This document shows positions 14,669-52,875 of a stretch of DNA of 64,000 bases, piece after piece. This stretch comes from Rhizobacter sp. (GTDB lineage: Bacteria; Pseudomonadota; Gammaproteobacteria; Burkholderiales; Burkholderiaceae_C): assembly GCA_031390425.1 (NCBI GenBank), contig JANMTL010000297.1, positions 1,055 to 65,054 of the forward strand, read 5' to 3'. Under the pieces are notes generated by a model. That model saw only the letters and a program-made list of their open reading frames with translations, had not been told where the DNA came from and searched no databases. The translations under genes and the position numbers were made by a program. Position 1 is the first letter of the stretch. Every line of letters begins with the position of its first letter.

Positions 14669-14761
14669 GCAACGACAATCACCGGCCCGATGCGAAGCGA
14701 GCTTCAGACCGATTGCCCGGCCGGTTTCAAAGAGTCGTCGAAGACAATAACTCCGAATATC

Positions 14762-15718: not shown

Positions 15719-15832
15719 AGATGTCGGCCGGGTTGCAAGCGAAATTCGGAGGTCAACCGCCGACCACTGAGTTTCGGCTCGGTGTCGCAACGAGTCATTC
15801 GTGATCTGACATTGCGCCTTCGCGTTCGGATC

Positions 15833-16927: not shown

Positions 16928-16948
16928 TTGTCAAAGACTGAGTTTCTA

Positions 16949-18340: not shown

Positions 18341-18341
18341 G

Positions 18342-19286
18342 GTGAGCCGCCCGAGCCCGACATCCATCGCCGTCATCCTGCCGTGTTTCAACGAGGCATT
18401 GGCCATCGGGCAGGTGCTGGACGAGTTCAAGCGCGCCTTGCCTGAAGCCGCACTGCACGTCTTCGACAACCGGTCCACCGATGACACCGCCGCCGTGGCG
18501 CGGGCGGCAGGCGCTGCCGTCACCCCTGTGCAGTTGCGCGGCAAAGGCAACGTGGTTCGTCGCATGTTTGCCGATGTGGAAGCCGACGTGTACGTGATGG
18601 TCGATGGCGACGCGACCTACGACGTCTCCAACATCCGCCAGCACATCGACCTGCTGCTGCATGATCGGCTCGATATGGTCGTCGGCTACCGTGAGGACGA
18701 CGGCCTCAACCCCCAGACCTACCGCCTCGGTCACCGCTGGGGCAACCAGTTGCTTACGCGGTCGGTGAGCCAGATCTTCGGCGGACAGTTCACCGACATG
18801 CTGTCGGGCTATCGGCTGTTCTCTCGGCGTTACGCCAAATCGTTTCCAGCCGCCACCCAGGGCTTCGAAACCGAAACCGAACTGAGCGTTCACGCCTTGG
18901 AACTTCGCATGCCGTATGCCGAGGTGGCCATCTCGTATCGCTCGCGGCCGGAAGGCTCGGTCAGCAAGCTGTCTACCTTCCGCGACGGTCGTCACATTTT
19001 AATGACGATCCTGAAGCTGTTCATCAGCGAGCGGCCGCTGGCTTTCTTCTCGGTCGTGGCGGCCCTGTTGGCGCTGCTGTCGATCGTCCTCATCGTCCCT
19101 TTGGCGGCGACCTACGTCGACACTGGGCTGGTGCCTCGACTGCCGACGGCAGTGCTCGCCACCGGCTTGATGCTGTGCGCGATGCTGGCGCTGGTCTGCG
19201 GCGCGGTGCTGCGCACTGTGACGATGGGCCGGCGCGAGGTCAAGCGCTTCGCCTACCTCGCGATTCCCGCCCCCTCGCGGAGCTGA
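18342..19286 (+). CDS. GT2 polyprenyl-phosphate glycosyltransferase (GtrB/ArnC/DPM1-like)
   Basis: GTG start 2 nt after the upstream stop. IAVILPCFNE...FDNRSTDDT...MVDGDATYD motifs plus two C-terminal TM helices. Confidence 0.8.
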   Translation: MSRPSPTSIAVILPCFNEALAIGQVLDEFKRALPEAALHVFDNRSTDDTAAVARAAGAAVTPVQLRGKGNVVRRMFADVEADVYVMVDGDATYDVSNIRQHIDLLLHDRLDMVVGYREDDGLNPQTYRLGHRWGNQLLTRSVSQIFGGQFTDMLSGYRLFSRRYAKSFPAATQGFETETELSVHALELRMPYAEVAISYRSRPEGSVSKLSTFRDGRHILMTILKLFISERPLAFFSVVAALLALLSIVLIVPLAATYVDTGLVPRLPTAVLATGLMLCAMLALVCGAVLRTVTMGRREVKRFAYLAIPAPSRS

Positions 19287-30623: not shown

Positions 30624-32366
30624 ATGAGAAAAAATATTCTCGCTTTGAGTATCACCGCCATCGGTGGGATGGTCATGTCTGGTGCGGCATTCGCTGGCGT
30701 GCAGATTGATGCCAATGGATCAATAGTTCCGGCTTTGCCAACTGCTTCTACTGCTGTCAATTTGGCTATTAGCGCGGATGGCGCAGGGCACATTTTGTTG
30801 GTTCCTTATTTTACCGTTCAAAACGGCAATGCAACGTTGATCAACTTGGTCAATACCGATAAAACTTTCGGTAAAGCTGTGAAGGTTCGCTTCCGCGGCG
30901 CTGCGAATTCCGACGATGTTTTTGACTTCCAAGTTTTCTTGTCGCCTGGTGACGTCTGGTCTGCCAACGTGAGCAAGGGTGCTGACGGTCGTGCAGCATT
31001 GACTACCACGGACAAGTCATGCACTTTGCCCAAGAATGTAAACACGTCCTTTGTGACCGACCGATTGCCGTCGACCTATACCGCTGCTCAAAAAGCTCTT
31101 CAAACGAATGAAGGCTATGTTGAGATTTTTAACATGGGCGACATTCCTAAATCGCGTTACAGCGCGCAGACTGGTCTTGCGCCGTCGGCTTCGTCGTCAC
31201 CAGTCGGCACTGGCGATAATCCGCTGTACCAGGCCATTAAGCACGTCGGCGGTGTAGCACCATGTAACAGCACCGATTCGGTAGTTGCAGCCCAGGCAGC
31301 CGCTACGTTGGCCAGAACCGCAGTTGACACGACTGTTCATGACAACACTACCACTCCATCCAACGCCGCCTTCCAAGGTTTGGCTTTGCCATCCACCGGC
31401 TTGTTTGCAAACTGGACGATCGTCAATGTTCCAGGAACATTGACCTGGACTGGTACAGCAACGGCGATCGTTGCAACGACCAGCGCTGGTACTGCTGGCG
31501 TCGGCAATTTGGTTATGCACCCACAAACGAATGCGCTGATTGGCGCAGCCGCGGCCACAGCTCGTACCAGTGACCCACTCTTGGCCGGTGGCTTTAGAAC
31601 ATTGTCTTCTGCCGGGGTCGGCAGTGATGCAATTGCTGCTCCAATCCAGGCGGCGTTGTTCGATTTTCCTGATTTGTCGACACCTTACATCAGGGTTGCA
31701 CCCGCTGGTGCTGCTGTCACGCCGACAGGGCAGGCTTTGCAACTCACGCAATCACTTGCAGCGACTTCATTCATCAATGAGTATTTGACTGAACCCACGA
31801 TCAATGCCAAGACGGATTGGGTGTTTTCAGCGCCAACGCGCCGGTACAGTGTCGGTTTGAACTATGCAATCGTTTCTCCGGATACGACGTTTACCCGGGT
31901 CTTTTCTAGCTTGGGCGGTGCAGCACAGACGTACCTTTTCAGCGGCAACACCAGCGTGGATACCGGCTTGGGTCAGATCTGTGTATTGAATATCAACCCG
32001 ACCTACCAGGATAGGGAAGAGAATGTTCCTGTCGACGTCACGGATTTCGTGATTTCCCCGGGCGCGCTTGGCGCACCATTGACGTTTTGTGGTGAGGTCA
32101 GTGTGTTGAGTTTCAACAATACGGCCGGAACGTCGGTTCTTGGTGCGTTGATTGCACGTAAGGATATTGATCTGGCGTTTAAGAATGGCTGGGCAACCAT
32201 CGCCACCCCGGGTAACGGAGGTAACGGCTTGGCAGTGATCGGCGCTTCATTCATGAGCGCCTTCAACGGCAATGCCACCCCGGGTGTCTCAGGTAATTAT
32301 GGTTTGTCGTTCCAGCATCGGTACGAGCGTGTGGCTCCTGTAGCGGCACCAACACCAGCACCTTGA
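30624..32366 (+). CDS. 580-aa secreted Ala/Thr/Gly/Ser/Asn-rich protein of unknown family (candidate T2SS cargo / surface-layer-like protein)
   Basis: GGAG RBS 7 nt before ATG 30624. Sec signal MRKNILALSITAIGGMVMSGAAFA|GVQ. Few charged residues and few Cys. Followed by a strong terminator. AT-richer than the surrounding genes. Confidence 0.7.
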   Translation: MRKNILALSITAIGGMVMSGAAFAGVQIDANGSIVPALPTASTAVNLAISADGAGHILLVPYFTVQNGNATLINLVNTDKTFGKAVKVRFRGAANSDDVFDFQVFLSPGDVWSANVSKGADGRAALTTTDKSCTLPKNVNTSFVTDRLPSTYTAAQKALQTNEGYVEIFNMGDIPKSRYSAQTGLAPSASSSPVGTGDNPLYQAIKHVGGVAPCNSTDSVVAAQAAATLARTAVDTTVHDNTTTPSNAAFQGLALPSTGLFANWTIVNVPGTLTWTGTATAIVATTSAGTAGVGNLVMHPQTNALIGAAAATARTSDPLLAGGFRTLSSAGVGSDAIAAPIQAALFDFPDLSTPYIRVAPAGAAVTPTGQALQLTQSLAATSFINEYLTEPTINAKTDWVFSAPTRRYSVGLNYAIVSPDTTFTRVFSSLGGAAQTYLFSGNTSVDTGLGQICVLNINPTYQDREENVPVDVTDFVISPGALGAPLTFCGEVSVLSFNNTAGTSVLGALIARKDIDLAFKNGWATIATPGNGGNGLAVIGASFMSAFNGNATPGVSGNYGLSFQHRYERVAPVAAPTPAP

Positions 32367-32426: not shown

Positions 32427-32494
32427 TATTGTCGGTGCCCTATTTGACTCAGTTGGGCGACTGGCTCAACCAAACAACGCAACCTATTGCTTAC

Positions 32495-33373
32495 ATGTTC
32501 AACCTATCTGTCAACTCACTCAAATCAGCGCTGCTTGTCGTCTGCATGGCGCACACGGTGGCCATGGCAGAACCGGCCGTCGTGGTCTCAGGCCCCGGTG
32601 TCAGCGTTGACAGCTCAGACTTGAGCGCCGATGCGCAACGGATTCCCGCGGAGTCCCGAAAGAAGCTGTTGAACAAGCCCGAGAATGTAGTTCAGATGGC
32701 GTCGAACTTGTACGTCCGTCGTGCGTTGGCGGCGGAAGCTGAAACTGCCGGACTGGGCAATGATCCTATAGTCGCCGCAGCAATCAGGCTGGCCAAGGAA
32801 CGCATCCTGTCGGACGCTCGGATGGCGCAACTGGATCTGAAAAACACCCCGCCCAACGACGCGTTGGATCAATTTTCGTTGGCCCGGTATCGAAGCAACA
32901 TCAATCAATATGAAACACCCGCTCAACTCAGCGCGCGACATATTCTGATCAAATCAAAAACCGCAGACGCCCGGGCAAAGGCGGAGAAACTACTTTCCGA
33001 GTTGAAAAGGGGCGCCGATTTCGAGAGTTTGGCAAAGGCAAACTCAGAAGACGCCTCGGCGTCGAAAGGCGGAGACCTGGGTTTCTTTCCACGCGGACGC
33101 ATGATCGCCCCGTTCGAAGCAGCAGTTTTTGCGCTGGCCAAACCCGGTGATCTCAGCGGGATCGTAGAAACAGAAGTCGGCTTTCATATCATCAAACTCG
33201 AGGCCAAGCAAGAAGCGACGGTCAAGCCATTTGAAGAAGTGCGTGATCAATTGCGCAAAGAGACCTTGGCCAATCTATTGAGTGACGCCCGCGGAAGAGA
33301 ATCGCAGCGCGTGCTCAACGGCGCCAAGTTTGAGGCAGCGGCAATCGAAGCGTTTGCAAACAGCCAGCAATGA
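32495..33373 (+). CDS. secreted parvulin-type peptidyl-prolyl cis-trans isomerase (PpiC/EpsD-like)
   Basis: Signal peptide ...VVCMAHTVAMA|EP. SurA-like N-terminal chaperone region. Parvulin core SARHILIKS...GGDLGFFPRGRMIAPFEAAVFAL...GFHIIKLE. Confidence 0.8.
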   Translation: MFNLSVNSLKSALLVVCMAHTVAMAEPAVVVSGPGVSVDSSDLSADAQRIPAESRKKLLNKPENVVQMASNLYVRRALAAEAETAGLGNDPIVAAAIRLAKERILSDARMAQLDLKNTPPNDALDQFSLARYRSNINQYETPAQLSARHILIKSKTADARAKAEKLLSELKRGADFESLAKANSEDASASKGGDLGFFPRGRMIAPFEAAVFALAKPGDLSGIVETEVGFHIIKLEAKQEATVKPFEEVRDQLRKETLANLLSDARGRESQRVLNGAKFEAAAIEAFANSQQ

Positions 33374-33446: not shown

Positions 33447-34241
33447 ATGCTTTGGACTGAAATCAGGGCTTTGTGGCAAGCGCGCGGGTTGGTTTGGGTA
33501 CTTACCCGGCGGGAACTTTCCGCGCGCAACGCGGGGTCGATCGCAGGCACACTGTGGTTGTACGTGCCACCGTTGATGACGATCGCTGCCTATTACCTGG
33601 TGTTCGAAATCGTCTTTTCGATGCGCCTCGGTCAACATGCTCCGGTCGAATCGGTCGGGGCGTACTTGGTGGTCGGCGCCTTGCCGTGGATGGCGTTTTG
33701 CGACGCCATCAACCGCAGCATGAGCAGCCTGATTGACGCGGGCGGCTTGCTCCAGAAAAATCCGCTTCCTCCCGCTTTGTTTCCCGCACGATCGGTGCTC
33801 GCGAGTGCGGTCGTGTTCGGGCCCTTGATTGGTTTGGTCACCATGGCGTACTCACCGATGCATCGGTGGACACCGGCCCTGGTCGCACTGTTGCCGCTCG
33901 CGCTTTTGCAGATGGCACTGTGCTGGTCGATGGGTTACTTGCTGGCGTTGCTGGCGGCTGCCTTGCGCGACGTGCTCGCCGTAGTCGGATTCATGCTGAC
34001 GGTGGGTATTTATCTATCGCCGGTACTCTTTCCCGTCACGATGTTTCCTCCCGACTGGCGCTGGATACTGTGGCTGAACCCCATGGCACCGTTGATCGGA
34101 GGTTATCAGTCGGTGCTGCTCACAGGACATTGGCCCGAGTTGAGCACCTGGGCGGTCACCGTCGTTTGGATCGTCCTGACCGTGTTGCTCCTGGAGGCGG
34201 TCGTCAAGCGCAGTCGCGATCAACTGGCGGATTGGCTGTGA
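33447..34241 (+). CDS. wzm: ABC-2 type polysaccharide export permease Wzm
   Basis: 264 aa with six hydrophobic helices and the ABC-2 family N-terminus (LVWVLTRRELSARNAGSIAGTLWLYVPP). Confidence 0.85.
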   Translation: MLWTEIRALWQARGLVWVLTRRELSARNAGSIAGTLWLYVPPLMTIAAYYLVFEIVFSMRLGQHAPVESVGAYLVVGALPWMAFCDAINRSMSSLIDAGGLLQKNPLPPALFPARSVLASAVVFGPLIGLVTMAYSPMHRWTPALVALLPLALLQMALCWSMGYLLALLAAALRDVLAVVGFMLTVGIYLSPVLFPVTMFPPDWRWILWLNPMAPLIGGYQSVLLTGHWPELSTWAVTVVWIVLTVLLLEAVVKRSRDQLADWL

Positions 34242-35500
34242 AGTCCACCGAAGTGCCTAATGCCGAGGCGAACGTCGTTCTGCGCGTGGCGCACGTAGGC
34301 AAGGAATACAAGCTCTACGACGCCCCGAAAGATCGATTTCTGGCTCTGCTGACGGGGCGCTCCAACCATCGCAGCCACTGGGCGCTGCGCGATGTCGACT
34401 TCACGGTGCATCGCGGGCAGTGCATGGGTGTAATTGGCGACAACGGCGCCGGGAAAAGCTCGCTGTTGAAGCTGATCGTCGGCACCTTGCAGCCGACCGA
34501 AGGCCGCGTGACGCGAGTCGGCCGCGTGACTGCCATCCTTGAGCTGGGCGCCGGATTCCATCCCGAATTCAGCGGCCGCGAAAACCTTTACTTCGGCGGT
34601 AGCCTGATCGGCATTTCGCACGCTGAGATGGCCCTGCTCGAACGCGAGATTCTCGATTTTTCGGAGCTGGGCGAGGCCATCGACCGGCCGGTAAAAACAT
34701 ACTCGTCGGGCATGGCGGTGCGGCTGGCGTTTGCGTTGGTCACGGCCGTGGAGCCCGACTTGCTGATCATCGACGAAGCACTCGCCGTAGGCGACCAGAA
34801 CTTCCAGAAGAAGTGCGTGCAACGCATCGACACGTTTCGTCGAAATGGCTGCACGATCCTGTTTTGTTCGCACAGCCTGTACCACATCAGACACCTGTGC
34901 GATGTGGCGCTGTGGCTGGACAAAGGCAGGGTGAAAGCATTCGGCGATACCGAAGCGGTGCTGCCGTCCTACGAGGCTCATGTGCGTGCGGGCGATCCGA
35001 CCACTGCAGAGACGGTCGATGCGTCCGACACCGGATTCAGCCGCTTGTCGACTCCGGCCGACAATCCTCCCGCGCCCGCCAAGCAGGCGGCCGAAGGCTC
35101 GGTCGCGCAACTCGTGTCCGTCGAGGTGGCGCACCTCGGCGCCGGTGAACCCCCGCTGCTCCAATCGCGCGATCTGGTGGTGACCGTCACCGCGCAGATC
35201 GAATCCGACGAGCAGCCGAGCATCGCCGTCATGCTGCAGCAGTCGCACGGTGTCGGCATCACCGCCGTGGCGACACACACCGAGGGCATCGCACCCGCAT
35301 GCCTGGGATCCGGGCGCTGGCAATCGACGCTGACTTTCCCGGAATTGCCACTGCACTCGGGCGACTACGTGGTCAGTGCCTACCTGTTCGACACGCCGGG
35401 TTTGGTTGTCTACGACGAGTGGCTGCGTTGCGTGGAATTCAAGCTGGTCTCGCCGAGTCGCCTGCCCGGTTTGGTGCGCCTGCCGCATCGTTGGTCCTGA
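34238..35500 (+). CDS. wzt: polysaccharide export ATP-binding protein Wzt with C-terminal glycan-binding-type extension
   Basis: GTG start overlapping the wzm stop (GTGA). Walker A GDNGAGKSS, signature YSSGMAVRLAFA, Walker B LLIIDEALAVGD. A ~170-aa beta-rich C-terminal domain follows. The ORF-track start 33866 is rejected. Confidence 0.85.
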   Translation: MKSTEVPNAEANVVLRVAHVGKEYKLYDAPKDRFLALLTGRSNHRSHWALRDVDFTVHRGQCMGVIGDNGAGKSSLLKLIVGTLQPTEGRVTRVGRVTAILELGAGFHPEFSGRENLYFGGSLIGISHAEMALLEREILDFSELGEAIDRPVKTYSSGMAVRLAFALVTAVEPDLLIIDEALAVGDQNFQKKCVQRIDTFRRNGCTILFCSHSLYHIRHLCDVALWLDKGRVKAFGDTEAVLPSYEAHVRAGDPTTAETVDASDTGFSRLSTPADNPPAPAKQAAEGSVAQLVSVEVAHLGAGEPPLLQSRDLVVTVTAQIESDEQPSIAVMLQQSHGVGITAVATHTEGIAPACLGSGRWQSTLTFPELPLHSGDYVVSAYLFDTPGLVVYDEWLRCVEFKLVSPSRLPGLVRLPHRWS

Positions 35501-35506
35501 CAGCTG

Positions 35507-36400
35507 ATGCCCGGCGCCGTCGAACGCCTGCGAGCCGAAGCGCGCGATCTCGTCGAGCTGGTGCTGGTGCCCGGGCTGGCAGCGGTGCTGCCGTGGCGCT
35601 GGTGCTTTCGCGTTTTTCGCTGGCTCTGCTTTCACACCCGATTTCTCTACCGCGGGCCGTGCGAACGCGCGCTGACCCAAGCCCAAGCTCGCGGCTGGGT
35701 CGACGATCCGCACACCTGGCTCGCCCATCGCCGATTGGTCACGCTGATCGACCATGCGGATTACTTTCTCGAACGCACCCGCAGCGATGCCTGGATGCGC
35801 AAGCACCTGCACGTCGATGGCGCCTGGCCGGCACCCAATCAGCCCGCCGTGCTGTGCACCTTTCACTGGGGCGCCGGCATGTGGGCACTTCGGCACGCCC
35901 CATCAGCCGGGCTGCGCGCGCACATGATGGTGGCACCGCCGCGTGGTGCGCATTTCGACGGGCGCACGGTTTCGCGGTTGTATGCGGTGGAGCGCACCGC
36001 CAGTATCGCGCGAGCACTCGGCCGCCCGACGCTCGATGTGTCGGCTTCGTTGCGGCCGGCGCTGCGTGCGCTGAGCCAGCGTGAGCAGGTTATCGCTGTG
36101 GTCGACGTGCCGGCCGATCAGGTGGCCGTCAGCCAGGCCATCGAATTGCTGGGCATGAAGGCTCGCGTACCGCGCGCCCTGTTTCGACTGGCAGTGGAAC
36201 AGGCGATTCCCGTGAGCGTCTTCCTGACCGGCATCTGCCTTGCCAGCGGCAAGCGCGTCCTGCGGCTCAGAGAGCTCGGCGTCTACACCGAAGTCGATGC
36301 GCTGATTCGTGACGTGTTCGCCGAACTGGAGCAGGCGATCATCGAGAGCCCGCCTGCCTGGCATTTCTGGAGCGAGTCGGAGCGGTTCTTTCGGGCTTGA
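35507..36400 (+). CDS. lysophospholipid/lipid A (LpxL/HtrB-family-like) acyltransferase
   Basis: 297 aa. N-terminal hydrophobic anchor, and a CTFHWGAGMWAL segment resembling the H-x4-E region of LpxL-family enzymes, though the acidic residue is not obvious. Confidence 0.45.
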   Translation: MPGAVERLRAEARDLVELVLVPGLAAVLPWRWCFRVFRWLCFHTRFLYRGPCERALTQAQARGWVDDPHTWLAHRRLVTLIDHADYFLERTRSDAWMRKHLHVDGAWPAPNQPAVLCTFHWGAGMWALRHAPSAGLRAHMMVAPPRGAHFDGRTVSRLYAVERTASIARALGRPTLDVSASLRPALRALSQREQVIAVVDVPADQVAVSQAIELLGMKARVPRALFRLAVEQAIPVSVFLTGICLASGKRVLRLRELGVYTEVDALIRDVFAELEQAIIESPPAWHFWSESERFFRA

Positions 36401-36403
36401 GGC

Positions 36404-38644
36404 TCACCTGGCAAGTGCGCCCTCCGCACCGATCGGCACCACGTCGAAGGCGGCCGGCGCCAGACCTTGAAGGTGACGTTTCCACATCGACAAGTAAGCG
36501 CTTTCGAGGTGCCGCCTGAACCGCGCGGTGTCGAACAGCGGATGCGTGTGACATTGCGAACCGAGGCGGCGTCGCAGATCGTGCAAACGCGCCGGATCGG
36601 TCGCCAGTTCGAGTGCTGCGGCCTCGTAGCCTGCGAGGCTGTCGGTGATCAGTTCGGGCAGCCCGGCGGCCCGCAGCAGGCTGGCCGCCACGCGCCCGGC
36701 GAAGGTCGATCCCGCACAGGTCAGCAGCGGCAATCCCGCCCACAGTGCGTCGCTGGCAGTGGTGTGCGCGTTGCACGGCAGGGTATCGAGAAACAGGTCG
36801 GCCTGACGATGCCGGGCCAGATGCTCGGGCAGCGCCACGCGCAGGGCGAAGACCAGCCGCTCCGGCGCCACACCACGTGCCCGGGCTTCTCGACGCAGAT
36901 TGCGTGACGCCGCCGAGTTGTCTTCCAGCAACCACAACACGCTGCCGTCCACCGCCTGCAGCAGACGCATCCAGATGTCGAATATCTCGGGCGCGATCTT
37001 GTAATTGTTATTGAAGCAGCAGAAGACGAACCCCACGTCGGGCAGCCCGCAATCAGCGCGGCTGGGCGTGTGCTCGGCCACCACGCGACTGCGCGCGTTG
37101 ACCTGGTACGAGTCGGGCAGGCGCACCACCTTTTCACTGTAGGCGCCATCGTGGCCTTCTGGAATCACGGTGGCATCGGCGATCAGGTAATCGATGGCTT
37201 CGTGGCCCAGGGTGCCGGGGAAGCCGAGGTAGCTGACCTGCAGCGGCGCCGCGCGATGGGCAAAGATGCCGGGACGGCTGTCGCGCGTGAAGCCCTTCAG
37301 GTCGACGGCGATGTCGATTTCGAGCTCGCGCATCGCCAGTGCCACCTGGCGGTCGTTCAGCGTACGAGCATCGATGAGGTGTTCGAACGATCGCTTCAAG
37401 CGCTCGCGCATCTCGCTGGGCCGATCGGGGCCAAGCGAGATGGCCCAGATCTCGAACTGCTCACGGTCGTGCGATTCGAACAGGTCGATCATCAGGTGGG
37501 CCGTTGCGTGGTCGTGGAAATCGGCCGAAACGTAGGCGAGCCGGATGCGATCGTGACCAGGACGAGGCAGCGCAAACTCACCCGGCAGCACGTCGAGAGG
37601 ATGCTGGTCGGCCGCGAAGACCCGTGCGCAGGCCCACTGTCTCGCCGCGTCGCCGCACAGCGCCACGGCCGAAAACGGCGCCGCTGCCTTGCCTCCCCGA
37701 TCGATGGCGCTCTCGAGCTGCTGGATCGATAGCGCATGCTCTACCCAGTCACAAATATTCAAACGGCTGAACAACAGATTGCCGAGCGCATAGGGATGGT
37801 CCGGCTTCAGGTCGAGCACACGCGCGCACGCTTGCGCTGCCTGGTCATGCCGGCCGAGCCGCCCGAACACGGCGGCCCGGTTGGCCATGACGGCGACGGC
37901 GTGGGGCTCGAGGGCCAATGCCCGGTCGTAGCACGCGAGCGCTTCATCGGGACGATGCAGGTCGTCGAGCACGCTGCCCAGGTCGCTGAGCGCCTCCGCA
38001 TCGTCGGGCGCCAACATCACCGCGCGCGCATGGCTGGACCTCGCTTCGTCGAGTCGTTGCAACGCTTCGAGCGCACGGCCGCGTGCTTTCAGCGCTTCGA
38101 CGTAATCCGGCTTCAGCACCAGGGCTCGATCGTGACTGGCCACAGCCTCGTCGATGCGCCCCAGTTCGCGCAGCACCAGCCCGCGGTTGTGGCAGGCCTG
38201 CGGGTTGGTCGACTTCAGCGCCAACGACTGGTCGTAGCAAGCGAGTGCGTCGGCATGACGCTGCAAATCGCGCAGCACGTTGCCTTTGTTGTTGAACGCG
38301 TCCGCATGGTCGGGTTGAAGCCGCAGCGCGCTGTCGTAGCGGACCAGCGCCTCGTCGAAACGCTTCAACTCGCGCAAGGCGATGCCGCAATTGTTGTACA
38401 GGGGCGCAAAGCTGTCGTTGACCGCGATGGCGCGTTCGAGCAGCGCCAGCCCGGGCTCCCAGGCCTTGCGTCGCAGATGACTCAGGCCGAGCAGGTGCAG
38501 GCCGTCGAAATGCTGCGGATCGCGCGTCAGCAGGTCGTTCAGCACTCGCTCGGCCTGCGCGCTGTTCCCCTGCTGCATCAATGTCAGCGCGCGCTGGAAC
38601 AAGCCCTGAATCGGCTCCGGCGCGTTGCGTCGCTGCTTTGCCAT
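36404..38644 (-). CDS. TPR-repeat protein fused to SPINDLY/OGT-type (GT41-like) glycosyltransferase
   Basis: 746 aa. N-terminal TPR array. C-terminal motifs RLAYVSADFHDHATAHLM, VSYLGFPGTLG, FCCFNNNYKIAPEIFDIW and CNAHTTASDALWAGLPLLTCAGSTFAGRVAASLL, typical of bacterial SPY/OGT-like enzymes. Confidence 0.8.
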   Translation of the reverse strand: MAKQRRNAPEPIQGLFQRALTLMQQGNSAQAERVLNDLLTRDPQHFDGLHLLGLSHLRRKAWEPGLALLERAIAVNDSFAPLYNNCGIALRELKRFDEALVRYDSALRLQPDHADAFNNKGNVLRDLQRHADALACYDQSLALKSTNPQACHNRGLVLRELGRIDEAVASHDRALVLKPDYVEALKARGRALEALQRLDEARSSHARAVMLAPDDAEALSDLGSVLDDLHRPDEALACYDRALALEPHAVAVMANRAAVFGRLGRHDQAAQACARVLDLKPDHPYALGNLLFSRLNICDWVEHALSIQQLESAIDRGGKAAAPFSAVALCGDAARQWACARVFAADQHPLDVLPGEFALPRPGHDRIRLAYVSADFHDHATAHLMIDLFESHDREQFEIWAISLGPDRPSEMRERLKRSFEHLIDARTLNDRQVALAMRELEIDIAVDLKGFTRDSRPGIFAHRAAPLQVSYLGFPGTLGHEAIDYLIADATVIPEGHDGAYSEKVVRLPDSYQVNARSRVVAEHTPSRADCGLPDVGFVFCCFNNNYKIAPEIFDIWMRLLQAVDGSVLWLLEDNSAASRNLRREARARGVAPERLVFALRVALPEHLARHRQADLFLDTLPCNAHTTASDALWAGLPLLTCAGSTFAGRVAASLLRAAGLPELITDSLAGYEAAALELATDPARLHDLRRRLGSQCHTHPLFDTARFRRHLESAYLSMWKRHLQGLAPAAFDVVPIGAEGALAR

Positions 38645-38671: not shown

Positions 38672-41600
38672 TCAGGCGTTAAGCCAGCTCTTAACCCGCG
38701 TCTGCCAGCGCAGCGGAATCGCCCGGGCGAGGCGGCTGAAAACCGGCGCGGATCGCAATCGCAGCACCGTCATGAACAAGGTCTGCTTGATGCCGTGGCG
38801 CAGCGCGTCGACCCCGTGCGAGCGATTCAACCGGTGCGCGGCGAGGAATTCGGGGCTCAGGGCCACCGCATGATCCGGTGTACGGACGCCGGCCAGATAG
38901 TCCCGTTCATACGACCACGAACGAATTCGCGAATCGTGCGTCACGGCCTGCAAACGATGCGTCGGCGCCGGCCCATCGGCGGTGACGAAATTACGCTCTC
39001 GCAGTTCGAGAAAGAACGCCAGCCCATCCGCTGCGGCGGCGTTCCAGGGCCGAATCCAGCTCCACGCGCGGCCGCTGAGGCGCTCTGCAAACGCGCCGAG
39101 GTCGGTCGCGACGACGGGCAGGCCACGCTCCAGGCAGGCGCTCAGGGTGTAGCTGTATGTCTCGGGCCACTGTGCGGGGAACCAGGCCAGATCAGGCTGG
39201 AGCTGATCGAGCAAGCGGGCAAGATCGGCTTCGTCGTATGGGCCGTGCACCGTGAGCCTGGCGCCCGGCGCGCTGCGCAGGCTGCGGTAGGCGAACCCGA
39301 GCAGGTGGAAGTCGATCGGCGCGGCCTGCTGTGCGGCCAGCGTGGCGACGTCTTCGAGCACGTCGGCGCCCTTGATCGGGCTGAGCGCGCCGATGACCAC
39401 GACCTTCAACGGCGCCGCTGCACCGAGCGCGCGGGGCGATGGCATCGGGTGCGGCAGGCGATCGAGCAGATCGTCGTGCGGCGCGTAGCGCACATCGGCC
39501 GTCGGCGCATAACGCAGCAGGCGCTGCGCCGCATCGCGGCTGGGCACCAGCACATGGCGGGCCCCGGCGATCAGGTTGCCGTGGCTGGCGCGCCACTGCT
39601 CTATCGACACACCACCCGGTGCGGGCGACCGGACCAGGCAGGTGCGGCACTGCTCGACGCCTTGTTCGCCGCAATAGGCGTTGTCGGTGCCGGTCAGGCT
39701 GATCTGCGGGCAGAACGCGTGGTAGTCGTGCGCGGTGAAGTCGTGGCGCACCCCCAGGTGCGCAGGCAGCGCGAGCACGTCGGCGCTGTGGCCGAGCAGG
39801 TGGTGGAAATGAATGTGGCCCACGCCGATCGCGCGCAGCGCTTCGAGCAGTGCCGGGAACTCCGACGGCAGCTGAAACGACAGTTGAAAGCCTTCGTTCG
39901 CGCCGTGCAGGCTGAGTGCGACCGACGGTCCGCGCGCCGGTTTGAGCACGAAGAAAACGGCATTGCTGCGCCAGCGGTCGGCCAGTTCGTGCACATGCCG
40001 CAGCGTGCCGCCTTCGCGGTCGTGAATCACCAGCAGCACCACCGGTTTGACGGCAGCCGCCACGCGCGCCAGGTCGATCGTGTGGCGGGCCTGCCGGGCA
40101 GGGTCGTGCGCAATGAAGCGGTGCACCTGCGGCTCGTAGTCGGGGTGCAGCCGACGCAGCGTTTCCATGGCGGCGATTTCACGCGGGCGCTTCAGCGCGC
40201 CGAAGCTGACGCCGCCCGCATGCAGCACGAAGGTGTCGAGTGCGTGCAGGTTGCGCCAGCCTGCCTGCTGGGCGCGCTGGCAAAAGTCGTTTTCTTCGCC
40301 GTAGCCCTTGCCGAATTGCTCGACATCGAACAGCCCCACCTGCGTCAGGCAGTCGCGCCGGATGTACATGCAAAAGCCGACGCCGGTGGGCACATCGACC
40401 ACTTGGCCGGACAGCGTGCGCGCGAACAGCGCGTCCAGCGACGCGGTGTCGTGGCCCTCGGGCAGGGTGTTGCCTTCGCAGGTGCGCGGGTAGCTGCAAA
40501 TGGTCGCGTTGTTCGAGAACGGTGTGACCGTGCCGACGCGGGTGTCCGAATACGCGGCGCGCTTGAGGCGATCGAGCCAGTCGTTGGCGACCTCGGTGTC
40601 GCTGTTGAGCAGCACCACGTCGTGCGCATCGCTGAGTGCCATGCCGCGGTTCACCGTGCCGACGAAGCCGAGGTTGCTGTCGTTCTCGACCAACAGGATG
40701 CGGCTGTCGCGGGCGGCCAGCTCGCGCAGCCAGGTCGTCACATCAGGTTCCGGGCTGGCGTCGTTGATGACGATCAGGCGGAACGCGGTTGCGTTGCTGG
40801 CGGCCAGCGCCGATTGCAGGCAGCGCTGCGTGTCACCCAGGCCGCGGTAGACCGGCACGATCACATCGACCGGCCACGCGGTGGGCGTGATGGCGGTCGG
40901 CGTCGGTGCGGCGGGCATCGCCGCACCGGCAGCGGGATGCAGCAGGCTGGGCCGACCGAGCAGCCGATCGATGCGGCCTTTCAGGCGCGACAGCGGCCGC
41001 GTCAGGCGGAACGATTTCGACTGCTCGATGCGCTGCACGTAGCCGTACAGGCCATCGAACTCGCCGCGCAAGGTCTGATGCGCCTGCTGCAGCTCCCGCT
41101 TTTCGTCGAGCAGCAGGTTCTTTTGGGCAAGCAGTTCAACACGCTGGTCGAGCAGCTTGAGTTCGCTGTCGGCCAACTGGGTGGCCAACGCCGACAGCCG
41201 CTGTTGCTGTGCCTGCCGCCGACATTCGCTGCCTTCTAGCGCAGCGGATAGCGCATCTCGCTGCAGGGCCAGGGCGTGTCCGCAGTCGCCGCTGGCGGCG
41301 AGTTCGTGCTCCAGTCGATCGCGCGCTTCGGACTGTTGAATCAGCGCCGGCTCGATGCGGGACAGCCGATCCTGCAGGGGTTGGACCACATCCTTCAGAG
41401 CCAGGTAGTCGGCCGACATCGGCCAGCCGAGTTCGACTTCGAGCGAGCCGCCGCGCCGTTGCTCCCACGCCGCCAGCGCGGCCGGCCCGATCGGCAATTC
41501 GATCCACGGGTCGTCGCCGTACAGCAGCGCCAGTGCGGGGGCGCCGTCGGGCCACGGCGCGCGCAGCAGCACCTGCTGAGTCGATGCGGTCGCGGCCCAA

Positions 41601-42676
41601 GAAAAATCGTCGACGCCGCAGCGCCATTGCCACACCGTGGCGCCGTCGGCGTCCTTCACCGTGAGGCGGTGCAGGTGCAGGAAGCCGGGGCGATCGGCCA
41701 CATCGAGCCGCAGCGCGCTCCACGGCGCCACGTCGTCGCCCCAGCGGAACTGCAGGGTCTGGCGCGGCTGGCCGATCACACCGGTGGCGGTGAGTTTGTC
41801 TTGCTGGAGGTAATCGCCCCGGTGCCCGATGAACAGTTCGGCGGAGAACAGCGCCTGGCTGACGGCCGGAGGCGTGGCGCCAGTGCCGGTTGAACTGGCG
41901 GTTGAACTGGCGGTTGAAGTGCCGACCGAAGTGCCGACGACACAGAGGGCCGCCGTCGGCAGGCTGTGTACGCTCACCGCCGCGTCCGGCGGTGCGACGA
42001 CCGCGACGAACTGATAGGTCAGCGCTTCGGGCACCGCCAGCAGATAACGACCGACTGCGGGCGGCAGCGTGTCGAACGGCACGCGGAATTCCGATTCGGT
42101 CAGCGGCCGGCTGAGCGACTGCACCGACTGCAGCGCCCAGCCGGCGGTGTCGATGAAGCGCGCCAGCGAGCGGCGCGTGAAAAAGCGCAGATGCGTGCGG
42201 TCGAGCAGGCCTTCGGGGCGGTACTCGAACTCACCTTGCAGCAGCTCGGCCACCAGCCCGCAGTAAGCGACGTTGGGCACCGAGATCAGCAGCCGACCGT
42301 TCGGCGACAGCAACGCGTGGCAAGCGCGCAGCACCTGGTCGGGCTGCTTCAGGTGTTCGAGCACGTCGGCGCAGACGATGGCGTCGTAGGGCCGGCCTGC
42401 GAACAGCGCGGCCAGCGGCGCCGAGTCCAGATCGGCCACCTCGATGCGGCGGTAGTGCGGTCGGGCCAGCGCGGCTTCGGCGTCGTTGTAGGTGACGCCG
42501 TCGACCACGCAAGCCCGCTGCGACTGCAGGTGCTGGCCGAGAGCGCCACTGCCGGTGCCCAGGTCGAGCACCACGCTGCCCGGCTCGATCAGGCCTGCGA
42601 TGACCGACAGCGAGGTGGGCTCGGTGCCCGAAATGGTGCGTCGGTATACGTGCAAAGGCCCGTCGTTGCTGATCAT
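38672..42676 (-). CDS. 1334-aa multidomain glycan assembly protein: SAM-methyltransferase, beta-rich domain, coiled coil, GT2, GT4-like
   Basis: Start at ATG 42676 (MISNDGPLHVYRR). Methyltransferase motifs VLDLGTGSGALG and DAIVCADVLEHL. A ~130-aa heptad-rich segment (LSALATQLADSELKLLDQRVELLAQKNLLLDEKRELQQAHQTL). GT2 motifs VDVIVPVYRG...IVINDASPEP...LLNSDTEV. C-terminal GT4-like segment (PAQWPETYSYTLSACLERGLPVVATDLGAFAERL). Confidence 0.8.
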   Translation of the reverse strand: MISNDGPLHVYRRTISGTEPTSLSVIAGLIEPGSVVLDLGTGSGALGQHLQSQRACVVDGVTYNDAEAALARPHYRRIEVADLDSAPLAALFAGRPYDAIVCADVLEHLKQPDQVLRACHALLSPNGRLLISVPNVAYCGLVAELLQGEFEYRPEGLLDRTHLRFFTRRSLARFIDTAGWALQSVQSLSRPLTESEFRVPFDTLPPAVGRYLLAVPEALTYQFVAVVAPPDAAVSVHSLPTAALCVVGTSVGTSTASSTASSTGTGATPPAVSQALFSAELFIGHRGDYLQQDKLTATGVIGQPRQTLQFRWGDDVAPWSALRLDVADRPGFLHLHRLTVKDADGATVWQWRCGVDDFSWAATASTQQVLLRAPWPDGAPALALLYGDDPWIELPIGPAALAAWEQRRGGSLEVELGWPMSADYLALKDVVQPLQDRLSRIEPALIQQSEARDRLEHELAASGDCGHALALQRDALSAALEGSECRRQAQQQRLSALATQLADSELKLLDQRVELLAQKNLLLDEKRELQQAHQTLRGEFDGLYGYVQRIEQSKSFRLTRPLSRLKGRIDRLLGRPSLLHPAAGAAMPAAPTPTAITPTAWPVDVIVPVYRGLGDTQRCLQSALAASNATAFRLIVINDASPEPDVTTWLRELAARDSRILLVENDSNLGFVGTVNRGMALSDAHDVVLLNSDTEVANDWLDRLKRAAYSDTRVGTVTPFSNNATICSYPRTCEGNTLPEGHDTASLDALFARTLSGQVVDVPTGVGFCMYIRRDCLTQVGLFDVEQFGKGYGEENDFCQRAQQAGWRNLHALDTFVLHAGGVSFGALKRPREIAAMETLRRLHPDYEPQVHRFIAHDPARQARHTIDLARVAAAVKPVVLLVIHDREGGTLRHVHELADRWRSNAVFFVLKPARGPSVALSLHGANEGFQLSFQLPSEFPALLEALRAIGVGHIHFHHLLGHSADVLALPAHLGVRHDFTAHDYHAFCPQISLTGTDNAYCGEQGVEQCRTCLVRSPAPGGVSIEQWRASHGNLIAGARHVLVPSRDAAQRLLRYAPTADVRYAPHDDLLDRLPHPMPSPRALGAAAPLKVVVIGALSPIKGADVLEDVATLAAQQAAPIDFHLLGFAYRSLRSAPGARLTVHGPYDEADLARLLDQLQPDLAWFPAQWPETYSYTLSACLERGLPVVATDLGAFAERLSGRAWSWIRPWNAAAADGLAFFLELRERNFVTADGPAPTHRLQAVTHDSRIRSWSYERDYLAGVRTPDHAVALSPEFLAAHRLNRSHGVDALRHGIKQTLFMTVLRLRSAPVFSRLARAIPLRWQTRVKSWLNA

Positions 42677-42713
42677 CCCGCCGATTATCGCTTTGCGATA
42701 CTGCGGGCCCCGT

Positions 42714-43679
42714 ATGCAGACTGCACCACCCGCACCAGCCCCGCACCCGCCGCGCCAGCCGCCCGACGTGGCGGTGCTGATGTGCACCTATCAGGGCAAG
42801 CGCCACCTCGCCGAACAGCTCGACTCGATCGGCCGCCAGACGCACCCTCGGTGGACGGTGTGGGTGTCCGACGACGGCTCGACCGATGGCACCCAGGCGA
42901 TCCTGGAGGGCTATCGATCGCAGTGGGGCGCCGATCGCCTGTCCATCCAGCGCGGTCCGGGCGCCGGTTTTGCGGCCAACTTCCGGTCGCTGACCTGCCG
43001 CGCAGACATCGATGCCGACTGCTTTGCCTGGGCCGACCAGGACGATATTTGGGAGTCGGCCAAGCTGGAGCGGGCGCTGGCCTGGTTGCAATCGGTGCCG
43101 GTGGACGTGCCCGCGCTTTACGGCACCCGCACGCTGCTGACCGACGAGGACAACCAGGCGATCGGGATGTCGCCGCTGTTCACTCGGCCACCCTGCTTCC
43201 CGAATGCGCTGGTGCAGAGCATTGCCGGCGGCAACACGATGGTGTTCAACCGCGCGGCTCGAGGGTTGTTGATGCAAGCGAATTCCCAGGACGACGCGGT
43301 GGCGCCCGACTGGCTGGCCTACCTGGTGGTCAGCGCGTGCGGCGGCCGCGTGCGCTACGACCCGTGGCCGAGCGTTCGGTACCGGCAACACGATGGCAAT
43401 CTGAGCGGCTCGAACCTGAGCCTGCCCGGTCGCTGGCGACGGGCCCGCTTGCTGGTCGACGGGCAGTTCAAGGGCTGGATCGACGCCAACCTCGCGTTGC
43501 TGGAGCGGGTCAAACCGCAGATGCCCGATGACAACCGGCGGATCCTGGACCGCTTCACCGAGGCGCGTCGGCGGCCTGCGGCTCGCCGTTTGATGGGGTT
43601 TCTACACACAGGCATTCATCGGCAAACGGCGCTCGGCAACATCGGGCTGGCGGTCGCCGCATGGCTGAACCGGCTCTGA
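42714..43679 (+). CDS. GT2 glycosyltransferase (rhamnosyltransferase-like)
   Basis: Start at ATG 42714. VAVLMCTYQG...VSDDGSTDGT...WADQDDIW motifs. Diverges from the giant gene across only 37 nt. Confidence 0.8.
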   Translation: MQTAPPAPAPHPPRQPPDVAVLMCTYQGKRHLAEQLDSIGRQTHPRWTVWVSDDGSTDGTQAILEGYRSQWGADRLSIQRGPGAGFAANFRSLTCRADIDADCFAWADQDDIWESAKLERALAWLQSVPVDVPALYGTRTLLTDEDNQAIGMSPLFTRPPCFPNALVQSIAGGNTMVFNRAARGLLMQANSQDDAVAPDWLAYLVVSACGGRVRYDPWPSVRYRQHDGNLSGSNLSLPGRWRRARLLVDGQFKGWIDANLALLERVKPQMPDDNRRILDRFTEARRRPAARRLMGFLHTGIHRQTALGNIGLAVAAWLNRL

Positions 43680-46867: not shown

Positions 46868-49800
46868 TTACCGTGACACAACGCTCCGCGCCAGCACCGG
46901 CCGCAGCGCGACACCGGTGTGGCTGGCGGCGACCGTCACCAAGCCTTCCGGCGTCGCGGCGGCCACCACGCGGCCACCGTGCGTGCCGCCTTCGGGACCG
47001 AGGTCGATCACCCAATCCGCTTCGGCGATCACGTCCAAATCGTGCTCGATCACCACCACGCTGTGGCCGCCATCGACCAGCCGGTGCAGCACGCGGATCA
47101 GCTTTTCGACATCGGCCATGTGCAGGCCGACCGTCGGCTCGTCGAGTACGTACAAGGTGTGTGGTGATCTGTTGCCGCGTTTGCCGACATCGTCGCGCAC
47201 CTTGGTCAGCTCGGTGACCAGCTTCAGGCGCTGCGCCTCGCCGCCACTCAATGTCGGTGACGGCTGCCCCAGCGTCAGGTAGCCCAGGCCCACGTCCTTC
47301 ATCAAGCGCAGCGGGTGGCTGATGGTGGGCATGCTGGCGAAGAAATCGACGGCCTCGTCGATTTCCATTTTCAGCACGTCGCCGATGTTCTTGCCGCGCC
47401 ACGTCACCGCCAGTGTCTCGGGATTGAAGCGCTGACCGTGGCACGCCTCGCACGGCACCTTCACATCGGGCAGAAAGATCATCTCGATCGTGCGCATGCC
47501 CTGGCCCTCGCAGGCTGGGCATCTTCCTTCGCCGGTGTTGAAGCTGAAGCGATTCGGTGCGTAGCCGCGCGCGCGCGACTCCAGCGTGTCGGCAAACAGC
47601 TTGCGGATCGTGTCCCAGAAACCGATGTAGGTGGCCGGGCAGCTGCGCGGGGTCTTGCCGATCGGCGTCTGGTCGACTTCAAGCACCCGGTCGATGTAGC
47701 CCCAGCCGTCGATCTGCTCGCAGCCTTGCCACTTCGGCGAGCCACCCTTCAGGTTGATGAACTGCAGGTTCGCCAGCAGCACATCGCGCGCGAGCGTGGA
47801 TTTGCCCGAGCCGCTGACACCGGTAATCGCGACCAGCCGCTTCAGCGGCACGTCGATCGTCACCTGCTGCAGGTTGTGTAGCGTCGCGCCTTGGATGGTC
47901 AGCCGCCGGTTGGCCTCGGACTCGCGTGGCCCGGCTGCGTCGGCTGCCGACACCTCGCGCCGCTTTTGCAGCGGGTGGATCAGCGGGTGAGCCAGCAAGC
48001 GGCCGGTCTGCGAATCCGGCGCATTCGCCAGATCGGCGACCGTCCCCTGCGCCACCAGCCGACCACCCCGGCTGCCCGCACCGGGCCCGATGTCGATCAG
48101 GTGATCGGCGCGGCGGATCGTGTCCTCGTCGTGCTCGACCACGACCAGCGTGTTGCCCTTGTCGCTGAGCGTCTTCAGCGCCTTCAGCAAAATCTGGTTG
48201 TCGCGCGGGTGCAGACCGATCGTCGGCTCGTCGAGCACGTAGCACACGCCCTGCAGGTTGCTGCCGAGCTGCGCAGCCAGCCGTATGCGCTGCGCCTCGC
48301 CGCCGCTGAGCGTCGGCGCCGCGCGGTCGAGCGTCAGGTAGCCGAGTCCGACTTCTTCGAGGAATTCGAGCCGGCCGCGGATCTCGCTGACCACGTCGCG
48401 CGCGATCTCCGCATCACGGCCGGTGAGCTTCAGCGAATCGATCCATTCGCGTGCGCCGGCCACCGACCACTGCGCGATCCACGCGATCGAGTGGCCCTCG
48501 AACGTGACCTTGCGCGACACCGGGTTGAGCCGGGTTCCGGCGCAGTCGGGACACGGTTCATCAATGAGTCCTTCGGCCTCGCTTTCCTCCGACGGAAAGC
48601 TCTGTTCGCGGCCTTTGTCGCTGTCGTCGCGCACCGAGTCGTCGTAGACCTTGCGCTGTTCGCGCGTCAGCGCCAGCCCCGTGCCGACGCAGGTGCAGCA
48701 CCAGCCGTGCTTGCTGTTGTAGCTGAACATGCGCGGGTCGAGCTCGGGGTAGCTGGTGCCGCAGGTGGGGCACGCGCGTTTGGTCGAAAACACCTTGACG
48801 CGACCGATGCCTGCTGTGGACGACGCGTTGCGCATCGCTTCGGTCAGGCCGTTCAGCGGCGTCAGCAGGTGCATCACGCCCTTGCCGATGTCGAGCGCCT
48901 TTGCCAGCGCGGCGCGCAGCTCGCGCTCGCGGTCGGCGCTGATGAGGATGTCGGCGACCGGCAGTTCGAGTGTGTGTTCCTTGAAGCGGTCGAGCCGCGG
49001 CCATGGCTCGACCGGCAGGAACTCGCCATCGACGCGCAGGTGGGTGTGGCCGCGGGCCTTCGCCCATTTTGCGAGGTCGGTGTAGACGCCTTTGCGTGCC
49101 ACGACCAGCGGCGCGAGCAGGCCGACATGCTCGCCCAGATATCCACCCAACTTCGGATCTCGCAACAGTTGCGCGGCGATGCTCTCGGCCGACTGCGGCC
49201 GCACCTCGGCACCGTCCTTCACGCAATGCTGCAGCCCGAGCTTGACGTACAGCAGCCGCAGGAAATGCCACACCTCGGTGGTCGTCGCGACCGTGCTTTT
49301 GCGCCCGCCGCGGCTCAAGCGCTGCTCGATCGCGACCGTCGGCGGGATGCCGTACACCGCATCGACCTCGGGCCGCCCGGCCGGCTGCACGATGCTGCGC
49401 GCGTAGGCGTTCAGGCTTTCGAGGTAGCGGCGCTGGCCCTCGTTGAACAGGATGTCGAAGGCCAGCGTGCTTTTGCCCGAGCCCGACACGCCGGTGACGA
49501 CGGTGAACCGGCCGCGCGGGATGTTCACGTCCAGCGACTTCAGGTTGTGCTCGCGCGCATTGACGATGCGGATGCAATCGTCATTCAGGTTCTCGATGCG
49601 GAGGGACTCATCAACAACGGCCCGCTCGGAGCGCGCCGCCTTCAGCAGCAATTGCAACGGCACGCCTTCTTCGACCGCCAACCCGCCCAGCCCCATGGCC
49701 CGGTCGTAATCGACCAGCGCCTTGCCCGTGTGCGAAGTCGGGTGCCGCTTCACATCGGCCGGCGTGCCGGTGCACACGACCAGCCCGCCGCCCTCGCCGC

Positions 49801-52675: not shown

Positions 52676-52875
52676 GCGGTACTTTCTGACTGCGACTGCG
52701 GCGAAACGCCGGATTCTAAAAGTCTGGTGAAACCGCACATCGCCACGCGAATAGACATCGCTGGCGGCGTTTGTTACCTGGTTGTTGCACATCGCTGCGC
52801 GAAAAGCCCCAGCGGTGGCACACCATCGGTCTAGGGTTCGCCCTGACTTTTGATCGATTCCGAGACGCAAGCACC

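Follow-up and report, generated by a model that had tools for sequence, protein, structure and literature searches.

A predicted methyltransferase, helical spacer and glycosyltransferase fusion protein encoded near the NpdA S-layer gene of Rhizobacter sp.

What does a single polypeptide that joins a methyltransferase, a long helical spacer and two glycosyltransferases do for the bacterial envelope? This question is raised by a gene at positions 38672 to 42676, on the minus strand, of a 64,000-nucleotide stretch of Rhizobacter sp. DNA (here called the window; contig JANMTL010000297.1 of assembly GCA_031390425.1). The window lies on the contig that we numbered C21 in a genome bin of 3.5 Mb, which comprises 319 contigs and is 92% complete. 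We consider it probable, at roughly 70%, that the 1334-amino-acid product is a terminator, ruler and polymerase in one polypeptide, belonging to a polysaccharide pathway that depends on an ATP-binding cassette (ABC) transporter, and that this pathway most likely makes a lipopolysaccharide (LPS) O-polysaccharide tethering the S-layer protein NpdA. The pairing of the gene with npdA is tight and previously unpublished and, together with the spread of coil lengths among relatives, is the main addition made here.

Domain architecture of the 1334-residue protein

The reading frame encodes 1334 amino acids plus a stop codon, contains no internal stops, and remains open in the 5' direction as far as a GTG at 42787. 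We kept the ATG at 42676 as the start because 51 aligned relatives share the N-terminus that begins there (consensus MT.....LHVY); the GTG was ruled out by the same match. The G+C content around the gene is 62-68%. We found about 2000 full-length relatives, 50-75% identical and with the same set of Pfam domains, whose database labels are just "methyltransferase domain-containing protein" or "O-antigen biosynthesis protein." Named hosts include Delftia acidovorans, Paracidovorax avenae, P. valerianellae, Comamonas, Ottowia, Alicycliphilus, Azoarcus and Rhizobacter-like bins, and the last of these hold the nearest relatives, at 70% identity. AlphaFold2 (AF2) was run as two half-models from 52-sequence alignments, one of residues 1-600 (mean predicted local distance difference test score, pLDDT, of 80.6) and one of residues 561-1334 (pLDDT 83.7; predicted template modeling score, pTM, of 0.82). 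Pfam and these models recovered the domain order given in a preliminary description of this DNA, namely methyltransferase, beta-rich domain, coiled coil, glycosyltransferase family 2 (GT2) module and GT4-like module. The whole gene thus reads as a methyltransferase, beta-sandwich, coiled-coil, GT2 and GT-B fusion.

The N-terminal module (residues 1-235; 41972-42676, minus strand) is a predicted class I S-adenosylmethionine (SAM) methyltransferase and the putative chain terminator. Methyltransf_23 (PF13489) matches residues 27-184 with an E value of 9e-21 and 74.7 bits, against a gathering threshold of 27, and AF2 gives the module a Rossmann-type fold at pLDDT above 90. Its best match among solved structures is 3cc8, found with an E value of 2e-34 against the family profile; a Foldseek search with the N-terminal half-model returned SAM methyltransferases with the same structure on top. 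The reading hinged on the SAM-binding residues, and these are present: the glycine loop D38-L-G-x-G-x-G44 is invariant in 52 sequences, as are D59 and C102-A-D-V-L-E-H108.

Residues 237-270 (41867-41968, minus strand) form a Ser/Thr/Ala linker that is predicted to be disordered, with pLDDT below 50. Its coding DNA holds two 12-bp tandem repeat arrays (41887-41938; Tandem Repeats Finder), and in-frame slippage there could alter the length of the linker. We found no kinase domain in the AF2 model between the methyltransferase and the beta domain at residues 276-417, where this 34-residue disordered linker stands alone. Because there is no room for a kinase, the predicted cap is a plain methyl group and not methyl-phosphate.

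A coiled coil had been proposed at 41370-40960, which is residues 436-572, and the segment is indeed predicted to be helical. The spacer that we delimited covers residues 423-572 (40961-41410, minus strand), in which AF2 places helices at 423-461, 468-552 and 554-572, 143 helical residues altogether. We scored heptads locally, in 21-residue windows with the best of seven registers, as the enrichment of core residues at a/d positions with register changes allowed. The spacer gave a z of 3.9, a value that none of 500 composition-preserving shuffles reached, whereas equal-sized control pieces of the methyltransferase, beta, GT2 and GT-B regions gave z values of -0.5 to -0.1. Among 87 relatives the median z was 3.5, and 85% of them exceeded 2. 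Proline and glycine make up 3.1% of the spacer segment versus 12.9% of the whole proteins.

The length of the spacer varies while its surroundings do not. Between the conserved anchors WPMSADY and IE.S...R..RP there are 125 amino acids in the Rhizobacter protein and 79-273 in the 87 relatives, and the linker from spacer to GT2 is steady at 33-52 amino acids. Such variation between strictly conserved anchors is what is expected of a tunable spacer. Modulo 7, the spacer lengths of these related sequences fall mostly into classes 0, 2, 3 and 6, a hint, and only that, of insertions and deletions of 3, 4 or 7 residues that would keep a hydrophobic seam. We conclude that residues 423-572 have the sequence pattern of a coiled-coil-type spacer with register shifts. 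A Pro/Ala-rich and probably flexible linker (residues 573-602; 40871-40960, minus strand; pLDDT below 50) separates it from the first glycosyltransferase.

That glycosyltransferase is a GT2 module of the GT-A fold (residues 603-875; 40052-40870, minus strand). Glycos_transf_2 (PF00535) matches residues 605-713 with an E value of 2e-13 and 51 bits against a gathering threshold of 23.3, and Glyco_tranf_2_3 (PF13641) matches residues 603-828. Foldseek aligned the C-terminal half-model with GT-A transferases such as ppGalNAc-T, WrtF and K4CP, and the acidic motifs NDAS, NSDTE and GEENDF are conserved in the 52 sequences. The next module (residues 876-1260; 38897-40051, minus strand) is assigned as a GT4-like GT-B glycosyltransferase. 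Glyco_transf_4 (PF13439) scores 27.9 at residues 889-1057 (threshold, 28.5) and Glyco_trans_1_4 (PF13692) scores 26.7 at residues 1091-1202 (threshold, 27); the two stand in the correct order, and many relatives carry both. The AF2 model of this region is two-lobed with alternating beta and alpha elements, consistent with GT-B, and a profile search of PDB sequences returned no match for the module. Four cysteines in a loop of its N-lobe (C989, C1002, C1010 and C1013) are invariant in the 52 sequences and may form a zinc site, which would be unusual for GT4-like enzymes. The protein ends in a candidate membrane-association segment of conserved basic helices (residues 1288-1334; 38675-38815, minus strand). 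AF2 models three helices there, at 1288-1333, with a hydrophobic moment of up to 1.9 and the conserved consensus ...RLRSAP.LR.VARAIPLRWQTRVK.WL.A, and we infer that they bind the membrane.

Between the methyltransferase linker and the spacer lies a family-specific beta-sandwich (residues 276-417; 41426-41851, minus strand), modeled by AF2 as strands only at pLDDT 85-94. It matched nothing in Pfam at E values up to 10 or in a profile search of PDB sequences, and hhalign detected no similarity to the Wzt_C domain encoded at the same locus. Fold searches with the half-models were dominated by methyltransferase and GT-A matches. By its fold class and by analogy with ORF6 of Klebsiella O7, described below, it is a possible carbohydrate-binding module.

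Used alone as a query against 1.84 billion representatives, the beta domain retrieved 233 protein clusters, and in the best 150 of these, for which we counted domain combinations, it nearly always starts near residue 240-280, directly after the methyltransferase. The most frequent combination, in 55 of the 150, is methyltransferase and beta domain with neither glycosyltransferase module, a WbdD-like layout with a median length of 493 amino acids and about 100 residues beyond the beta domain. The methyltransferase-beta-GT2-GT-B arrangement accounts for 23 clusters, methyltransferase-beta-GT2 for 20 and GT-B-beta for 10; the beta domain occurs by itself in 37, which are mostly fragments. Four relatives of about 690 amino acids (L083, L085, L088 and L089) consist of methyltransferase, beta domain, short linker and GT2, and lack coil and GT-B, while the protein of a Competibacter relative (L091) terminates after the coil. 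From these combinations and short forms, the methyltransferase-beta pair emerges as the constant unit to which the coil and the polymerase modules have been added or from which they have been lost. The family thereby contributes a recurrent, unclassified beta domain that likely holds substrate for the methyltransferase, and nature supplies a comparison set for the ruler idea in those members whose coil is longer, shorter or missing and in those that lack glycosyltransferases.

Association with NpdA and with ABC exporter genes

Which glycan could such a protein make? The most consistent companion of the gene is one for an S-layer protein of the NpdA family, which lies 6 kb away in the window (30624-32366, plus strand; identity via PMC10765051). 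We surveyed 201 genomes of the family, made up of the window's own and a single representative of each genus; relatives are not independent, so the counts are descriptive. A full-length ortholog of the fusion protein occurred in 22 of the 201, and a strong NpdA match in 23, namely the same 22 and one more at a contig end. Ortholog and npdA share a contig in 16 of the 22 genomes, 0.3-15 kb apart. In the remaining 6 they are on different contigs, and these are fragmented assemblies or genomes with several NpdA copies. The other sampled genome of the same genus has neither. The order of fusion gene and npdA is alike in Acidovorax, Caenimonas, Paracidovorax and Delftia, and in D. acidovorans NBRC 14950 about 7 kb separates them. 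We also observed a second NpdA-like gene in the Rhizobacter genome itself (contig C165, 1301-2905), with 42% identity and a TAA stop within the match, and multiple NpdA copies in three related genomes (G055, G157 and G026).

NpdA sheets reassemble in vitro only once LPS is added (PMC3110197). The glycan is probably an LPS chain that holds the NpdA S-layer, because all 22 genomes with the fusion protein also carry NpdA. The NpdA literature makes no mention of glycan genes or glycosylation, and a literature search brought up no usable O-antigen structure from Delftia or Acidovorax. Neither the window nor any of 80 related loci that we fetched has a gene for a Wzy_C ligase or oligosaccharyltransferase; there are five elsewhere in the genome. 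With the near one-to-one co-occurrence and the known need for LPS in Delftia, the gene offers a handle on the tethering of Gram-negative S-layers.

The exporter genes lie on the opposite strand, convergent with the fusion gene and 3-9 kb from it. They encode Wzm, an ABC-2 permease (33447-34241, plus strand; PF01061, E value 2e-13), and Wzt (34238-35500, plus strand), which has a nucleotide-binding domain (PF00005) and, in its C-terminal 170 residues, a Wzt_C carbohydrate-binding domain (31.4 bits against a Pfam threshold of 30.4), the sole one in the genome. The preliminary description had called this Wzt adjacent and credited it with the extra C-terminal domain. The domain was found, but the adjacency does not hold, as two genes intervene and the strand is opposite. 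The first of the two begins 6 nucleotides after wzt and encodes a conserved 297-amino-acid protein (35507-36400, plus strand), which we found in about 22 of the 80 related loci; it matched nothing in Pfam, NCBIfam or the PDB, and a label of LpxL-like acyltransferase was not reproduced. The second (36404-38644, minus strand) encodes tetratricopeptide repeats (TPR) with a GT41 glycosyltransferase (PF13844, E value 2.5e-79) and stands on the same strand as the fusion gene, 27 nucleotides downstream. We class it as accessory because only about 8 of the 80 loci have it. The OGT/HMW1C-like enzyme could introduce a side branch or, alternatively, act in the cytoplasm on a protein, for instance by glycosylating NpdA.

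This arrangement is shared. A parvulin gene (32429-33373, plus strand) precedes wzm, and wherever the flank of a related locus sufficed to judge its position, the parvulin-Wzm-Wzt(-NpdA) block was convergent and mostly 4-9 kb beyond the fusion gene. Acidovorax sp. NCPPB 2350 and Caenimonas terrae have, in this order, genes for a secretin, a small protein, a protein of about 580 amino acids, a parvulin, Wzm and Wzt, then variable genes, the fusion gene, a small GT2 gene and wecA. Of 46 related loci, 43 encode a Wzt whose C-terminal domain is like that of the window; the median length of Wzt there is about 417 amino acids.

The small GT2 gene is also present in the window (42714-43679, plus strand; PF00535, E value 7e-16). 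Its 321-amino-acid product is a stand-alone GT2 and a candidate adaptor or priming transferase. It diverges from the fusion gene across only 37 nucleotides (42677-42713) and keeps this position in relatives, where WecA follows. We found no sigma-70-like promoter in those 37 nucleotides, which would place the promoters within coding sequence unless they are of a different type. Scans for promoters and terminators around the operon yielded no more than chance would. In the Rhizobacter genome wecA is part of an rmlB-rmlD-rmlA-rmlC-wecA operon on another contig (C181, 13851-18645) and is the only non-MraY PF00953 gene, whereas in relatives it adjoins the fusion gene. The initiating transferase is thus linked in this genome to the synthesis of deoxythymidine diphosphate (dTDP)-rhamnose and not to the fusion gene. 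These placements are hints that the polymer may contain rhamnose and be primed on N-acetylglucosamine.

Several other genes of the window were observed. After the small GT2 gene come ahpCF and a double UvrA-like gene (46868-52870, minus strand) for a protein of about 1935-2000 amino acids with two UvrA-like halves; in the closest relative (L010) it occupies the same place, with ahpCF, beside the ortholog of the fusion gene. A 470-amino-acid polytopic membrane protein (16928-18340, plus strand) has nine hydrophobic segments, a large loop and no Pfam match. Its gene sits in a patch of low G+C content (0.52) and is flanked by radical SAM/SPASM, Acyl_transf_3 and GT2 genes (14690-19286), a possible second group of genes for glycan modification that lies upstream of the type II secretion genes. 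A further gene (11071-12786, minus strand) encodes TPR repeats fused to a 2-oxoglutarate-Fe(II) oxygenase.

A length-control model and its alternatives

How might the parts work together? In the model that we infer for catalysis, cap chemistry, oligomeric state, length control and sugar identity, the basic C-terminal helices would hold the protein against the inner membrane on its cytoplasmic side. There the GT2 and GT-B modules would elongate an undecaprenyl-diphosphate-linked chain, alternating two linkages, after priming in which the small divergent GT2 and an enzyme of the WecA type probably take part. The methyltransferase and beta-sandwich would be kept some 20 nm away by the coil, which is about 150 residues long, and only chains that span the spacer would reach the methyltransferase. 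O-methylation of the nonreducing end would then stop growth, and the carbohydrate-binding domain of Wzt would read the cap and commit the chain to export. The terminator-ruler-polymerase reading had been put forward in the preliminary description, and the SAM motifs, the variable heptad spacer, the two glycosyltransferase modules and the linkage to Wzm/Wzt support it.

The gene also opens the question of whether glycan length sets the spacing of the S-layer. It is conceivable, and we hold this tentatively, that the coil serves to gauge the spacing of the S-layer: the length of the methyl-capped O-polysaccharide would set the distance above the outer membrane at which NpdA crystallizes, and the cap would be the docking epitope. 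If so, genera would differ in S-layer spacing and nanopod geometry according to the length of their coil, which ranges over 79-273 residues.

Several observations weigh against the terminator-ruler-polymerase reading. The family is known from sequences and predicted models alone. The Pfam matches that define the GT-B module sit just below threshold, and no GT-B structure was among the top Foldseek matches of the C-terminal half-model. A global Fourier test for a 3.5-residue period over residues 423-572 was not significant, the spacer is kinked at 462-467, and its heptads are visible only locally; therefore, the coil needs register shifts. The AF2 model of the spacer is a monomer, so that oligomerization is assumed. 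The coil-less natural relatives of about 690 amino acids, with methyltransferase, beta domain and GT2, exist, and therefore the coil is not essential to the family. At least one genome has the fusion gene away from wzm/wzt, and some related loci have extra stand-alone methyltransferases, so methylation could be internal. Finally, the rhamnose link comes solely from the placement of wecA.

In one alternative, the methyltransferase decorates internal sugars and the helix is an oligomerization or scaffold element, making the protein a multifunctional polymerase without ruler function. The coil-less methyltransferase-beta-GT2 relatives and the extra methyltransferases would suit it. However, this methyltransferase lies across the spacer from the polymerase, the position of all characterized terminators, it is accompanied by a cap-reading Wzt_C, and the spacer varies threefold in length while its flanks are conserved. 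The WbdD-like clusters without glycosyltransferases, one of which is the Competibacter protein that ends in its coil, also argue for a terminator, and we regard internal methylation as unlikely.

The destination of the glycan can be read in other ways as well. It might be put onto NpdA itself, yielding a glycoprotein in the manner of Geobacillus WsaE rather than an LPS O-antigen. WsaE follows the same logic of a methyltransferase with two glycosyltransferases in an S-layer glycan cluster that adjoins the S-layer gene and also encodes Wzm, Wzt and a TPR protein, the Rhizobacter locus has its own TPR-GT41 gene, and the five Wzy_C proteins of the genome could include an O-oligosaccharyltransferase. 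We nevertheless find a glycoprotein improbable: the Geobacillus cluster has its own transferase, WsaB, whereas no Wzy_C gene stands in the window or the 80 loci, and the NpdA papers, silent on glycosylation, report LPS-dependent assembly. An exopolysaccharide, capsule-like or free and lipid-linked, that has no connection with the S-layer, with npdA nearby only as part of a shared envelope island, is very unlikely. It would account for the GT2, acyltransferase, radical SAM and membrane protein genes at 13-19 kb, which suggest a wider glycan island, and for the six of 22 genomes in which the two genes are on different contigs. Against it stand the co-occurrence in 22 of 22 genomes over a background of about 23 in 201, the gene order conserved across genera, and the genome of the same genus that lacks both genes; moreover, no KpsD/E-like capsule export genes turned up among the genes examined. 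We favor an LPS O-polysaccharide whose length would be set by the fusion protein.

Comparison with known systems

Is there a characterized enzyme of this kind? The preliminary description knew of none that matched, but two do. ORF6 of Klebsiella pneumoniae O7 has been shown experimentally to comprise a methyltransferase, a 223-amino-acid kinase, an immunoglobulin-like carbohydrate-binding module, a coiled coil and two GT2 modules (PMC11231755; Kelly et al. 2024, J Biol Chem). Compared by its published description, it resembles the Rhizobacter protein in its length of about 1400 amino acids, its N-terminal methyltransferase, the beta domain before the coil and the two C-terminal glycosyltransferase modules, and also in its partners, as it works with Wzm/Wzt and a small stand-alone GT2 that serves as adaptor. 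It differs in the kinase and the methyl-phosphate cap, in place of which the Rhizobacter protein has its 34-residue linker, and in having two GT2 modules rather than GT2 and GT-B. The second match is WsaE of Geobacillus stearothermophilus, a 2-O-methyltransferase fused to two rhamnosyltransferase domains that is encoded in an S-layer glycan cluster and gives a methyl cap (PMC2943079). Here too a methyltransferase-two-glycosyltransferase fusion is encoded with wzm/wzt and a TPR protein beside an S-layer gene; the host, however, is Gram positive, and its glycan is joined covalently to the S-layer protein by the in-cluster transferase.

Coil length sets chain length in WbdD of Escherichia coli O9 and WbbB of Klebsiella O12 (restated in PMC11231755). 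WbbB of Klebsiella O12 and Raoultella unites, in a single chain of the same N-to-C polarity, a terminator, a coiled-coil ruler and the two glycosyltransferases of the polymerase, but its terminator is a GT99 beta-3-deoxy-D-manno-oct-2-ulosonic acid (Kdo) transferase instead of a methyltransferase, and no WbbB chain in the PDB matched the family profile at an E value of 0.01 or below. WbdD (E. coli O8/O9a and Klebsiella O5/O3) shares the N-terminal methyltransferase and has, as predicted for the fusion protein, a coiled-coil ruler and a C-terminal membrane-binding helix. In that system a Wzt carbohydrate-binding domain reads the cap, which is methyl only in O8/O5. Unlike the fusion protein, WbdD has no beta domain and no glycosyltransferases, WbdA being recruited separately, and no WbdD chain was returned by phmmer at an E value of 1 or below, by the profile at 0.01 or below, or among the top 50 fold matches.

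Closer to Rhizobacter, the O-polysaccharide ABC cluster of Acidovorax oryzae encodes a methyltransferase-coiled-coil protein, read by its authors as a terminator, and a wzt mutant in that cluster is phage resistant (PMC11597636). The O-antigen of Caulobacter crescentus carries a Gram-negative S-layer, with RsaA bound noncovalently at the tip of the LPS O-antigen; the S-layer protein is a different one, secretion is type I there and type II here, and the Caulobacter text consulted describes no fused ruler-polymerase protein. The design of the Rhizobacter protein is thus known in principle, and the protein is a variant of it that has no kinase and has a family-specific beta domain and a GT2 and GT-B pair. 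Its family would carry the ruler principle, established in enterobacteria, over to Comamonadaceae and related Burkholderiales, where this format, with methyl as the only cap, no kinase and GT2 plus GT-B, is common.

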